Below, in pieces: positions 59,737-63,771 of a stretch of 64,000 bases of DNA. The position numbers and the translations under genes were made by a program. The number at the start of each line of letters is the position of its first letter. Position 1 is the stretch's first letter. The notes below the pieces were generated by a model. It was not told the DNA's origin and searched no databases. It saw only the letters and a list, made by a program, of their open reading frames with translations. Source of the DNA: Promethearchaeota archaeon (GTDB taxonomy: Archaea; Asgardarchaeota; Lokiarchaeia; Sigyniarchaeales; SOKP01); contig JBHLOY010000001.1 in assembly GCA_048939995.1 (NCBI GenBank), positions 366,449 to 430,448 on the forward strand, in the 5' to 3' direction.

Positions 59737-59841
59737 AAAAGCTCGAAGATTTAAATAAGGAATTATTTTTTAAGTTTCAGATTTTAAAATAAAGAGGAAA
59801 GAATTTAAATATTTTTTGCAATAAATTAAGGAGGCAATCCT

Positions 59842-59885
59842 TTTGTCAATCTCTTACTATAATTTTCTAAAAGATTTCATTCAAA
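59842..59885 (-). promoter_or_regulatory. Candidate SECIS-like kink-turn hairpin in 3' UTR
   Basis: Minus strand UUUG-A-AUGA-AAUCUUUUA-G-AAAAUUAUA-G-UAAGAGAUU-GA-CAAA: lower stem, 3-nt bulge, tandem GA/AG, 9-bp upper stem, A-rich loop. Confidence 0.45.
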
Positions 59886-59999
59886 TTATTATAATTGTTT
59901 GTTAAAATAATGGATAAAATATTTATTCTCTTTACCATATTTTTGGCGCAGTATTGTTTTAAGTGACCCCATATCTAATCGTTCTTTTACTTTTTCTCA

Positions 60000-60356
60000 T
60001 CAACATCCTACATCTGGTTGTAATTGAATAAAGCTATTAGGATAGATATTGAATTCAATATTTTCCCTAATGGGGTTAAATTTACGTAAAATTCCATCCT
60101 CATCAGGTGCGTAGGCAAATACTCCGACGTCCTCATATATTAAACCTTCCTCTAAATTTACAAATAGTTGAAGATAACTATGAATGTAACTCTCATATAG
60201 TGGAAATATTGAATTCATAGAATCTTCCATTTCAATTTTATCAACCAATGCTAAAGCTTGGATAAATGTTGCGTTATCATTGAGTTCAAGAGAATACTTC
60301 TTACCCTGTTGGAGACCTTTAATTGGTATACTAATTTCAAATTCTACCTTTTTAAT
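60000..60356 (-). CDS. MoaD/Urm1/SAMP-like beta-grasp protein ending Gly-Cys, probable ATT start; possible selenoprotein
   Basis: Frame extends 36 codons upstream of the track ORF to ATT 7 nt after AGGTGA: KKVEFEISIP..KKYSLELNDNATFIQALALVD...NIYPNSFIQLQPDVGC then TGA TGA. Confidence 0.7.
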   Translation of the reverse strand: MKKVEFEISIPIKGLQQGKKYSLELNDNATFIQALALVDKIEMEDSMNSIFPLYESYIHSYLQLFVNLEEGLIYEDVGVFAYAPDEDGILRKFNPIRENIEFNIYPNSFIQLQPDVGC

Positions 60357-60378
60357 CTTTAATTCACCTATCGTATGA

Positions 60379-60648
60379 TTATATTAAGCCTTTTTCTTTA
60401 AGGAGAATGGGTAAATCTTTTTTCAGTAGAAATGCAGCAGTATATTTTCTTTCATTATCTACTACAATTGAGTTTCCATGTAAATTAAGGCTTCTAGCTT
60501 CTTCAGAATTAAGATTTTTTGTGCTATAATCAATATGTTTAATGTAAGGAGTTAAAACAATGAATACACGGTTCATAAACTTATCCCATTCGCAAGCACA
60601 GCTATCTAATGGCACATAAATGTCCACTTTTAATTTGCTATTTTCCAT
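60379..60648 (-). CDS. Small thioredoxin-fold CxC protein, ArsD-like metallochaperone candidate
   Basis: KVDIYVPLDSCAC resembles the ArsD N-terminal strand/Cys cluster; IVVD strand; ars-type context. Confidence 0.6.
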   Translation of the reverse strand: MENSKLKVDIYVPLDSCACEWDKFMNRVFIVLTPYIKHIDYSTKNLNSEEARSLNLHGNSIVVDNERKYTAAFLLKKDLPILLKEKGLI

Positions 60649-60659
60649 GGTTTAGATCC

Positions 60660-60965
60660 TTAAGAACAATTACATGATTGGTTTGAATTTTTTACTCTAC
60701 TTCTCACATTCCATAAACATCCACAACCAGGCTGTTCTTGCATAATGATAGCTTGGGTGGGGCAATTTCTCTTACAGGCACTGCACTCAGTACAGAGATT
60801 TTCATTAGTTATTTCATACTTTCCATTTTCATTTGGTTTTGGTAATCCAAAAGGGCAAATCTCTCCACACAACCCACAACCATTACAGATATCTTTATTA
60901 ATAAAGATACGCAGATTCTTCATGATTTGTGTGATATTTAAAGACTTAAAATCTATTTCAGTCAA
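60660..60965 (-). CDS. HgcB-like 2x[4Fe-4S] ferredoxin with extra Cys
   Basis: CNGCGLCGEICP, CTECSACKRNCP, then GCGC and terminal CNCS; TTG start after GGAGG; directly after the HgcA-like gene. Confidence 0.85.
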   Translation of the reverse strand: MTEIDFKSLNITQIMKNLRIFINKDICNGCGLCGEICPFGLPKPNENGKYEITNENLCTECSACKRNCPTQAIIMQEQPGCGCLWNVRSRVKNSNQSCNCS

Positions 60966-61010
60966 ACTTAACACCTCCTAATCTACAATATTATTAATTT
61001 TTTATATTAT

Positions 61011-62672
61011 TTAAACAAATATAACTCCAATTGTTAATGAAATCAAGCCTATTATTAAAAAAACCTTATTTAATAAGCTAAATAGGGGATATTCATTTTC
61101 AATTTTTCTTGGGCTTGTTGCCATTGTATAACCACTGGAAGACATAGTGGAAAAAAAAGCAATCCAAAAGAAAAATCCAATATTTATGAGGACATAAAGA
61201 ATTGAACTATGAAGCCACCACGTTAGTAATCCCAAAATACTAATATTAATGAATCCATAGAATATTCCCTTAAATACAAATTTTTGGGTAAAATCTGAAA
61301 GAGGAAACAATAAAAATATAATTAGATTTGTAATTATGACCCAAAGGCAGATTTCCCCAATCCACCAAACCTTATCAAAGTTTGTAAAAATTGCTAGTCC
61401 TAAGAATAGGAAGAATAAAGCGATTATAGGTAAAAGAAACACTTTACGGAAGAGAAATGTAGTGTGGGTTATTACTGCACGCATGCGATGAGACAATTTA
61501 AATTTAGCGAGCTTCATTTTATCTGATTTTTTAGACGGCTTTTCTTTTAAATAGTCTGGTATAAACTTGGACCATACTGGGCCATATTTAACCTTAAATG
61601 GAAATTTTTCGGAACTTTTAGGTAGTTCTGGAATAGCTATTCCGCCAGCAGAAAGTTGAGGAAGCAGAAGTGTTTTTTTATTAGAAATATATTGAATTCC
61701 AGAAGTTTCTACAGCTTCGAGGAGTTGGGAATTACCAAAATTATTTCCGCGAGCCGCACACCATACATTAATCCCATTAGAATCGACACATAATACCCAT
61801 GCGTTGATCTTTTTCAAATCTCGCATAACTTTAATATATGTATAATCATAATTTGCAGTAACAATAATAGGGGAATCTTTATCGGGAGTCCCAGATTCAT
61901 AAATCCCTGGCTCAATAGGAACATGATCCACTTGACCGGTGAAGGTGCAACGGTATATCCTTAATTGAGATTTTATTCCTTTAAATTTTCTCGGTTTAGG
62001 ACGATAATAACCAGGTTCATTTTTTTGATTGACAATTACTTTTTGAAGCTCTAATGCTTGGATAGAGCCATGTTTCCACTTTTTTTGAGTTTTAATTTTG
62101 AATCCGATTGATTCTAGATAATTAAAGAACCATTTAACACGGAAAGTATTTTGTAATCGAAGTCTTCTAATTTTTTTCTTGTACCACCATCTTTTAATAT
62201 TAAAGATTAATCTCCAAAATCCTGAAGGCACAAATTCAGCTCCAATTATTAAACTTCCTTCTGGTTTTAGGACTTTCCATGCATTTCGAAGGAAAATTTG
62301 CTGTTCAAATGGACGTAATTCTGATAACATAAAAGTACTTACTACCACATCCTTAGAAGAATCTTCCATATGTATATCTGAGAAAGTCCCAATTTGATAA
62401 GTTAGTTTCAAATTTTCTTCTTGAGGATAATTCTGCATTGCAAAAGTAATCATCTTAAAATTTTTGTCAATTGCAATAACATTATTACCCTTTAATGCCA
62501 TTTTAGCAGCGAGTACACCTGTACCACATCCAATCTCTAAAACATCTGAAGCATTTACACGATCAAGAATCCATTTCTGGACTTCTTTATTAACTCCCTT
62601 TGTAAGAGTGGTAAATTTTGAATCATATGTATCTGGTTCCTGTTCCAATTTCCTCATATATACGACAGCCAT
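61011..62672 (-). CDS. SAM methyltransferase fused to HgcA-like corrinoid-binding membrane protein
   Basis: N-term VLEIGCGTG..LKPEG; middle PIIVTANY, GINVWCAARG cap helix (61746-61769), LPQL, YGPV; five C-terminal TM helices; ATG 62672 after AGGTG. Confidence 0.9.
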   Translation of the reverse strand: MAVVYMRKLEQEPDTYDSKFTTLTKGVNKEVQKWILDRVNASDVLEIGCGTGVLAAKMALKGNNVIAIDKNFKMITFAMQNYPQEENLKLTYQIGTFSDIHMEDSSKDVVVSTFMLSELRPFEQQIFLRNAWKVLKPEGSLIIGAEFVPSGFWRLIFNIKRWWYKKKIRRLRLQNTFRVKWFFNYLESIGFKIKTQKKWKHGSIQALELQKVIVNQKNEPGYYRPKPRKFKGIKSQLRIYRCTFTGQVDHVPIEPGIYESGTPDKDSPIIVTANYDYTYIKVMRDLKKINAWVLCVDSNGINVWCAARGNNFGNSQLLEAVETSGIQYISNKKTLLLPQLSAGGIAIPELPKSSEKFPFKVKYGPVWSKFIPDYLKEKPSKKSDKMKLAKFKLSHRMRAVITHTTFLFRKVFLLPIIALFFLFLGLAIFTNFDKVWWIGEICLWVIITNLIIFLLFPLSDFTQKFVFKGIFYGFINISILGLLTWWLHSSILYVLINIGFFFWIAFFSTMSSSGYTMATSPRKIENEYPLFSLLNKVFLIIGLISLTIGVIFV

Positions 62673-62712
62673 TAAATACACCTATTTTCTTGTATTTTAT
62701 AATAAAATAAAC

Positions 62713-63771
62713 CTATTGAGATTTCCAAAAACCTCGTTTTTTTAGATACCTGCCTAAATAAACTATTGAAAGCATTATGGGGACTTCCCAAAATAATCCC
62801 ATAGTAGTCCCCAATGCTGCAATTGAACCAACACCATAGATTGCGATAGCAGTAGCGATTGCAATTTCAAAATGACTTGAAGATCCAATAATTACAGTTA
62901 TTACAGCCTCTTTGTATTTTAATTTAAAAAATTTGGTAATTAGGATATTGTATCCAACAACAATAGCAAAACCAACCAGAAGTGGTATTGAAACCAATAA
63001 TAACAAATCTGGATTAAGTACTAGAACTTGTCCATTTAAAGAAAAAAGCACAGCTAGAGTAGTCAATAGAGCTAAAATAGAAATTTTTCCTACTAGAGGG
63101 CGATAAATATTATTAAACCAATCTATTCCCTTGGAAGAAATAATAAGTCTTTTAGATATAATACCAAGTAATAAAGGAAGCCCAATAAAAATTAATGTTG
63201 AAAATAATAAAAGGATCCAATTTATTGGGATGCTTTGAATACCTGTTAATAACGTTACCATTGGAGCATAACCAAATATTATAGTTATGGTGTTTAAACT
63301 AGTATTAATTACATTCTGTTCTTGATTTCCTCGTGCCATCCAGCCCCATACAAGAACCATCGCTGTACACGGTGAACTAGAGAGTAATATAATAGCGACT
63401 GAAAGTTGTTGATTTCCAGCTAAAAACAAATTAACCATCAGTAACCCTATAAAAGGAGCAACTAACCAATTAGAGATTAATGTTAAAATGATAGGTTTAG
63501 GATTTCTTCCCAATTTCTTTAATTCTGAGGCCTGAATATTTAACATTGCAGGATACATCATCAAAAACAAACAAATCCCAATAGGAACTGAAATTTCCCC
63601 TATTTTTATAGCATCAATTGCTTCACTGATGCCTGGAAAAAATTGCGATAAAAGAATTCCAATAAGAATACATAAAGCAACCCATAGGGGAAGAAATTTC
63701 TCAAAAAAACCAATATCTTTCCCTTTCTCTTTCGAAACTTGTTCTATTCGATTTAATCTTTCTTTTTGCAT
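62713..63771 (-). CDS. acr3: ACR3 family arsenite efflux transporter
   Basis: FEKFLPLWVALC, MMYP, NW...P, PCTAMV, FEIAIA, EVPIML. Confidence 0.93.
   Translation of the reverse strand: MQKERLNRIEQVSKEKGKDIGFFEKFLPLWVALCILIGILLSQFFPGISEAIDAIKIGEISVPIGICLFLMMYPAMLNIQASELKKLGRNPKPIILTLISNWLVAPFIGLLMVNLFLAGNQQLSVAIILLSSSPCTAMVLVWGWMARGNQEQNVINTSLNTITIIFGYAPMVTLLTGIQSIPINWILLLFSTLIFIGLPLLLGIISKRLIISSKGIDWFNNIYRPLVGKISILALLTTLAVLFSLNGQVLVLNPDLLLLVSIPLLVGFAIVVGYNILITKFFKLKYKEAVITVIIGSSSHFEIAIATAIAIYGVGSIAALGTTMGLFWEVPIMLSIVYLGRYLKKRGFWKSQ

Follow-up and report, generated by a model that had tools for sequence, protein, structure and literature searches.

On the minus strand of the 64,000-nucleotide stretch of Promethearchaeota DNA analyzed here (the window), direct reading of the sequence shows a gene that runs through GGA TGT (60008-60003) into TGA TGA (60002-59997), behind which 35 further codons stay open up to a TAA at 59891-59889. 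The question is whether neither, one or both of these UGA codons encode selenocysteine (Sec), and what a protein with such a site would do. A first-pass annotation had put the gene forward as a candidate selenoprotein with a ubiquitin-like fold and a downstream SECIS-like hairpin, and the gene end and all the hairpin parts that it named are present where it had placed them. The features of the gene and its 3' region are as follows.

60364 to 60369, minus strand: ribosome-binding site AGGTGA, from the sequence; a GGTG-type motif is similarly spaced in many orthologues
59889 to 60356, minus strand: full coding sequence of 155 amino acids with ATT start, two in-frame TGA codons and TAA stop, from an alignment of 42 full-length homologues
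60009 to 60356, minus strand: predicted beta-grasp (ubiquitin/SAMP/MoaD-like) domain with insertions, residues 1-116, from an AlphaFold2 model and a match to SAMP1
59997 to 60005, minus strand: putative Cys118-Sec119-Sec120 (TGT TGA TGA), with TGA TGA in 83 of the 83 UGA-bearing homologues read
59892 to 59996, minus strand: 35-residue helical tail behind both putative Sec residues, R126 and Y150 invariant, from pN/pS, frame closure and model helices
59843 to 59884, minus strand: lokiSECIS with kink-turn lower stem, AUGA, 9-bp stem, 11-nt A-rich loop ending in AG, and GA, from its match to the definition and covariation
59828 to 59842, minus strand: short second hairpin immediately behind the SECIS core on its 3' side, whose loop contains GC or GU, from covariation and folding

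The list of open reading frames shows only an 82-aa piece of this gene because the gene begins at an ATT (60356), a position at which the orthologues L033, L034 and L038 have an ATG in the same register. Across the homologous loci (L023-L051), the start position (60354-60356 in the window, minus strand) is occupied by ATT, GTT, GTC, TTT, ATA or ATG, varying by genome, which suggests that the family may be tolerant of non-AUG initiation. The gene directly upstream, the one member of the operon whose stop codon was checked, ends in TAA.

Judging from sequence comparison, it is highly probable that both adjacent UGA codons are read as Sec through the 3' lokiSECIS, tRNA-Sec and EFSec, and just as probable that the product is a ubiquitin-fold selenoprotein in which Gly-Cys-Sec-Sec is followed by a 35-residue helical tail. 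Orthologues within the genus all keep the TGA-TGA pair, and the reading frame beyond it is conserved at the protein level, with a pN/pS of 0.24 over 31 codons of the tail compared to 0.22 over the 30 codons preceding the UGAs. Variation in the tail peaks at third codon positions, and the tail of a paralogue clade has a pN/pS of 0.18. Both alternative frames of the tail are closed in 25 of 25 genes, and their pN/pS is 0.9-1.3. Moreover, TGA-TGA follows only 5 of the 1974 long ORFs in the genome, so its invariance in this family does not reflect ordinary double-stop usage. That the frame might continue through both UGAs to the TAA had been a side remark of the annotation, and this conservation bears it out.

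The annotation's principal proposal, in which the first UGA encodes Sec and the second is a stop, giving a terminal Gly-Cys-Sec like that of thioredoxin reductase, has become very improbable. Between 32 and 50 residues follow the UGA pair in 43 of 43 genes measured, so that Sec is neither the last nor the last-but-one residue; the tail, conserved in a single frame, lacks its own start codon, a reading from the ATG within TG-ATG-A extends over at most 22 codons in 41 of 43 genes and gives no conserved frame, and UGA-free homologues have the tail as well. On the other hand, UGA does act as a true stop when it is near the SECIS (14 of 43 tails end in TGA), and incomplete read-through of the two UGAs could give such a form as a by-product. 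The suggestion that QPDVGCU corresponds to a MoaD-type tail fails too, as no homologue has a C-terminal Gly-Gly and the conserved tail follows. Equally improbable is a reading of the UGAs as Trp, Cys or Gly, or of the tail as a separate peptide, since the genome uses TGA as an ordinary stop (315 of 1974 long ORFs), neither TGG nor TGY replaces the pair in any homologue read, and a canonical SECIS lies downstream, its AUGA about 100-155 nt past the last UGA in the homologous genes, whereas the W-W forms given by some gene callers (P0007, P0013, P0027) are probably best explained as translation-table-4 calls.

The homologues were expected, if the proposal was right, to carry TGA invariably or to align it with Cys. 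TGA-TGA is indeed found in all UGA-bearing genes read, and the alignment with Cys is seen at column 118 but not at the two UGA positions: no homologue has Cys at 119 or 120. At column 118, the D-U-U paralogue clade has TGA, and the window gene and the Bathyarchaeota-type homologues have Cys, which is the only Sec/Cys pairing observed. Three side observations concern stop and UGA usage. In L035, L050, L054, L062 and L103, the actual termination codon is the UGA within the AUGA of the SECIS, an arrangement already reported for other Loki selenoprotein genes. In one orthologue (L030:1501-1968, genome G017), the position of a conserved Gly in the tail is taken by a third TGA, which lies 89 nt ahead of the SECIS and may be an error, a pseudogene or an extra Sec. 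Tandem paralogues of different motif classes also occur (L045, L104 and L111 versus L078, L102, L103 and L113), some pairs having one common SECIS behind the second gene (4 or 5 UGAs in total) and others one each.

The gene was detected in 105 of 121 genomes drawn evenly from its class, Lokiarchaeia, and every full-length match has two or three TGA codons. Among the 83 UGA-bearing genes read, the motif is C-U-U in 61, D-U-U in 18 and U-G-U-U in four; the D-U-U paralogue is also present in the same genome as the window gene (contig C16). The homologues bear the names Promethearchaeota, Helarchaeota and Ca. Lokiarchaeum ossiferum, the last of which is cultured and carries the gene annotated in shortened form as NEF87_003065, with a divergent SECIS core (UA for GA). 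Most matches in a search of 1.8 billion proteins are forms cut off at the first UGA. The others include a clade of single-Cys homologues with the first tail helix, including Bathyarchaeota UCH02879.1, and UGA-free homologues that keep the entire tail and nest within Loki sequences, such as P0008 (L120:1274-1747), which has C-V-S at the site and the whole tail. The presence of the tail in UGA-free and single-Cys homologues indicates that body and tail form one chain. Within the Loki clade, the derivatives without Sec comprise P0008, P0049 and P0076, and the latter two have no Cys at the site but keep the tail. No member of the family was found outside the class in the genomes searched; two weak partial matches there lacked TGA, and the one that was read is an ordinary MoaD-type protein. 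NEF87_003065 is absent from the proteomic supplements searched, and neither of two RNA libraries demonstrates transcription of the homologue in G050: in the first, the stretch lies inside a 38-kb contig, so DNA is likely to be in that library, and in the second it is represented by one 155-base contig with a depth of 3.9.

The 3' hairpin agrees with each point of the lokiSECIS definition of Mariotti 2016 (PMC4989117), namely AUGA, a 9-bp stem, an 11-nt A-rich loop ending in (A)G, and GA, near the gene end. On the minus strand, AUGA occupies 59880-59877, the stem pairs 59876-59868 with 59856-59848 around a loop at 59867-59857, GA lies at 59847-59846, and a UUG/CAA lower stem pairs 59884-59882 with 59845-59843. 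Its distance from the first base of the TAA to the first base of the AUGA is 11 nt, compared with -1 to +28 in homologues. The annotation had cautioned that AT-rich DNA may form such hairpins by chance, and rightly so: the hairpin alone does not fold beyond chance (z -1.1 to -1.6), and an Rfam scan of the 3' region gave no relevant match. However, although the lone hairpin is unremarkable, comparison across homologues settles the SECIS as real. In 55 aligned elements, AUGA is invariant, the pair closing the kink-turn is G-C in 51 and A-U in four, and all 17 pairs, including the kink-turn lower stem, vary on both sides, which bears out the eukaryote-like AUGA/GA type with a kink-turn given in the annotation; covariation was one of the checks that it had named. 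Of the cells in these pairs, 88% are paired compared to 77% in shuffled and 43-52% in slid alignments, figures from a set in which kin are not independent and three distant rows are poorly aligned. A simple SECIS pattern lies behind 71 of the 83 homologous genes. Among the 12 genes without it, three are the first genes of tandem pairs and one is cut by a contig end; in most of the others the SECIS overlaps the end of the coding tail or is slightly degenerate, and no convincing SECIS was found behind two distant genes. A stricter pattern has 16 matches in the genome versus 3 and 7 in simulated sequence, and half of these 16 follow genes with an internal UGA: three VhuD, VhuU, PrxL, the window gene, its paralogue and one further candidate.

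The second hairpin directly behind the core varies on both sides in five of five pairs and folds with a z of -2.5 on its own, and similar hairpins stand behind other SECIS cores of the genome (VhuD, VhuU, PrxL). It could belong to the lokiSECIS without having been recognised as such, and it is apparently undescribed, as the available portions of the two Asgard surveys (PMC4989117, PMC11227280) contain no mention of it.

All components of the Sec machinery that the annotation named, tRNA-Sec among them, were found in the genome. SelD (with an in-frame TGA) and SepSecS are encoded, together with a PSTK-like protein (161 bits, below the family cut-off) and an EFSec-like protein (236 bits, just below it), both cut-offs having been set on other lineages. 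A tRNA-Sec with anticodon TCA lies upstream of SepSecS, as in the relative G019, but unlike the intronless gene of that relative it contains two introns, each about 30 nt long and non-canonically placed (L147; G000:C23, about 113475-113631, plus strand); ARAGORN and Rfam missed it because of these introns, and it was located by means of the relative's gene. As a separate observation, a second candidate selenoprotein lies outside the window: a Zn-ribbon ORF of about 37 aa ending in R-F-K-TGA and then a stop (L148:1567-1680; G000:C17). Seven genomes of the genus have it; the neighbouring paralogue carries a Cys at the position of its TGA, and in at least four genomes the gene is followed by a lokiSECIS (in G000:C17 at 215786, plus strand) with compensatory changes. 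In sum, the selenoprotein candidate of the annotation is borne out by the invariance of TGA-TGA, selection on the tail, the SECIS and the Sec machinery.

The predicted fold agrees with the ubiquitin-like assignment. AlphaFold2, with Cys in place of Sec, gave a model with a pLDDT of 91.3 that includes the tail helices (129-140 and 148-151), and residues 111-120, likewise modelled with Cys, average 79. The best structural match of residues 1-116 is SAMP1 (4hro; Z 7.0, rmsd 3.2, 84 residues aligned), and beta-grasp chains dominate the top of the match list; CysO and the cobalamin-binding domain of transcobalamin are tied with SAMP1, as Z values within 1 count as ties and those below 8 may mean a common fold only. 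Foldseek and Atlas agree weakly with a beta-grasp fold, Foldseek giving no match at E <= 0.001, and a PDB sequence search gave no credible match. None of 42 family members matches Pfam or NCBIfam at E <= 1, and there is no match to Pfam ThiS. The model thus has the fold of the MoaD/ThiS/SAMP/Urm1 carriers, but in the absence of a terminal Gly-Gly the family is not a member of them, and activation by an E1-like enzyme is not expected without a free Gly-Gly end.

The neighbouring genes bear on the possible function, and the following features lie upstream.

60379 to 60648, minus strand: thioredoxin-fold protein of 89 aa with an invariant CxC-x-W and no known family, from a model with pLDDT 94.6 and an alignment
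60660 to 60974, minus strand: 2x[4Fe-4S] ferredoxin, HgcB-like (NF040864, 54.6 bits, below the cut-off of 99)
61011 to 62681, minus strand: SAM methyltransferase fused to an HgcA-like corrinoid/membrane protein (NF043040 147.6/180, NF040863 163.3/275, NF043039 173.5/285; below the cut-offs)
62713 to 63771, minus strand: Acr3 arsenite efflux transporter (TIGR00832, 270.4 bits, cut-off 282.8)

The window gene thus follows genes for Acr3, the methyltransferase-HgcA-like fusion (cap motif NVWCAARG), the HgcB-like ferredoxin and the CxC thioredoxin-fold protein, whose layout resembles that of ArsD, a name that no search returned. In 56 of 83 loci, a CxC thioredoxin-fold, HgcA-like, ferredoxin, Acr3, ArsR-like, ArsC-like or DGC-like neighbour lies within four genes, the last three kinds being named from sequence only. 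The CxC gene is directly upstream in 35 of 83 loci, and an HgcA-like gene lies within four genes in 30. These arsenic-context loci are not independent, as they come mostly from one family; a second family has the same link, with ArsR-like and Acr3-like genes adjacent in G045 and a CxC protein near the gene in G039, and in four other families, including that of Ca. Lokiarchaeum ossiferum, the gene stands alone. The HgcA-like fusion is common in the host's family and present in 86 of 121 genomes of the class, weak paralogue matches included; the wider occurrence of the selenoprotein gene (105 of 121) suggests a more general role.

As(III) is coordinated by three sulfur ligands, and selenolate is a preferred ligand of Hg. 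From the arsenic and HgcA-like neighbours and the reported concentration of the otherwise rare CU dipeptides in heavy-metal systems (HgcA, SaoL and MerT; 10.1101/2022.07.06.499078), we infer a site of adjacent chalcogens for soft metal(loid)s. The selenoprotein would then be a binder or carrier of As(III)- or Hg-type ions, for which we see an even chance, and the odds are likewise balanced for this function and the double Sec decoding taken together. The 3' lokiSECIS would direct tRNA-Sec and EFSec to both UGAs, placing Cys-Sec-Sec in a loop past the last strand of the 155-aa beta-grasp protein, ahead of the helical tail. Two or three neighbouring thiolate or selenolate groups (C-U-U, D-U-U or U-G-U-U) could create a site with high affinity for ions such as As(III), methyl-As(III) or Hg(II), which the protein might bind, buffer or pass on. 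In the host genome, it would serve the Acr3/methyltransferase-HgcA-like/HgcB-like cluster, perhaps contributing in trans the CU motif that in HgcA selenoproteins is part of the N-terminus of HgcA itself. The fullest version, a class-wide Asgard family with adjacent Sec residues (up to three in four residues), a eukaryote-like SECIS with a second hairpin, and a role as a selenolate arsenic/mercury carrier or sink, falls slightly short of an even chance.

The main rival, a redox catalyst, is clearly less likely. The same tandem-Sec protein would form a vicinal diselenide or selenenylsulfide that is re-reduced by the CxC neighbour, with As(V) species, peroxides or protein disulfides as its substrates. 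Redox enzymes make up the majority of selenoproteins (PMC13188914), and both the frequent thioredoxin-fold gene directly upstream and the presence across the class, as befits housekeeping, fit this role. However, the single-contig genomes G044, G050 and G055 all carry the selenoprotein gene and no CxC gene was found in them, most homologues of the Bathyarchaeota type carry a single Cys at the site, and the variable motif spacing suits ligand packing better than a fixed redox pair. A complex prediction for residues 1-118 and the CxC neighbour, without the Sec site and tail, scored 0.04, which speaks neither for nor against a pairing of the two.

It is improbable that the protein descends from sulfur carriers of the SAMP/MoaD type and now carries or stores selenium, which it would deliver or buffer for the synthesis of Sec or of cofactors. 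The fold is nearest to SAMP1, CysO and MoaD, the distribution is near that of SepSecS (105 versus 116 of 121 genomes), and SepSecS is about 2 kb away from the gene in G047; yet that neighbourhood occurs only once and the arsenic-cluster context frequently, C-terminal Gly-Gly is missing, and Cys-only homologues exist outside the class. Marginally less probable still is a corrinoid-binding or methyl-carrier partner of the HgcA-like protein, whose Sec would take or pass on a methyl group or ligate cobalt. In the structural match list, SAMP1 is closely followed by the cobalamin-binding beta domains of transcobalamin, intrinsic factor and haptocorrin (Z 6.2-6.7), and the HgcA-like neighbours in 30 loci would suit such a partner, but these Z values are subject to the same ties and common-fold reading as above, and the gene is also present in genomes where the query used found no HgcA-like fusion.

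As a selenoprotein family, it would add to the 11 archaeal families counted in a 2026 review, which lists 119 prokaryotic ones, and with 105 of 121 genomes it would rank among the commonest in Lokiarchaeia. It would link selenium use to arsenic and mercury gene clusters in sediment archaea, and the back-to-back decoding of UGA from a 3' SECIS would be a natural test of how UGA is dealt with, in the absence of SBP2, by the system closest to the eukaryotic one. As the gene is present in a cultured organism, public proteomes (for L. ossiferum, PXD074767, named in PMC13716822) can test the double read-through: the tail peptides of NEF87_003065 read through both UGAs include LTPTEFIQGMK and ELFGDEDPIYQIYQK.

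None of the 119 prokaryotic families in that review is listed with a ubiquitin-like fold or an adjacent Sec-Sec motif, and the available parts of both Asgard selenoproteome surveys (PMC4989117, PMC11227280) include neither the family nor such a motif. In the later one (Huang 2024, PMC11227280), Asgard genomes were searched only by homology to known families and seven were found, this family not being among them. Our literature search on adjacent or tandem Sec, with most subscription journals outside its scope, found no description; adjacent Sec may occur in animal selenoprotein P variants.

Compared with mammalian thioredoxin reductase, which ends in Gly-Cys-Sec-Gly, the window protein shares the Gly-Cys-Sec tripeptide, but here it is internal, is followed by a second Sec and the tail, and belongs to no flavoprotein body. 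With SAMP1, MoaD, ThiS and Urm1 it shares the beta-grasp, and its reactive residues lie past the last strand, where the carriers have Gly-Gly; unlike them, it has no terminal Gly-Gly, a 35-residue tail and about 30 residues of insertions. The Cys-Sec proteins of the heavy-metal systems, HgcA (with an N-terminal PCUGP), SaoL, SaoB, SaoC and MerT (10.1101/2022.07.06.499078), resemble it in a Cys-Sec dipeptide hidden by UGA truncation (C118-U119 here; absent from the D-U-U and U-G-U-U clades), in extra chalcogen residues at the site and in an organometal(loid) gene context. It is unrelated to them in sequence, with no NCBIfam match to HgcA, SaoL, SaoB or SaoC, and it is archaeal, with a 3' SECIS, a beta-grasp and a second adjacent Sec. 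The closest parallel in decoding is with the lokiSECIS selenoproteins SelD, HdrA-VhuD, VhuU/FrhA and PrxL (PMC4989117, PMC11227280): SECIS shape, position and machinery are alike, and so are the occurrence of several Sec residues per SECIS and the ability of tandem genes to share one. The decoding system is a known one, whereas the family, unrelated to those proteins, and its adjacent-Sec site appear to be undescribed.
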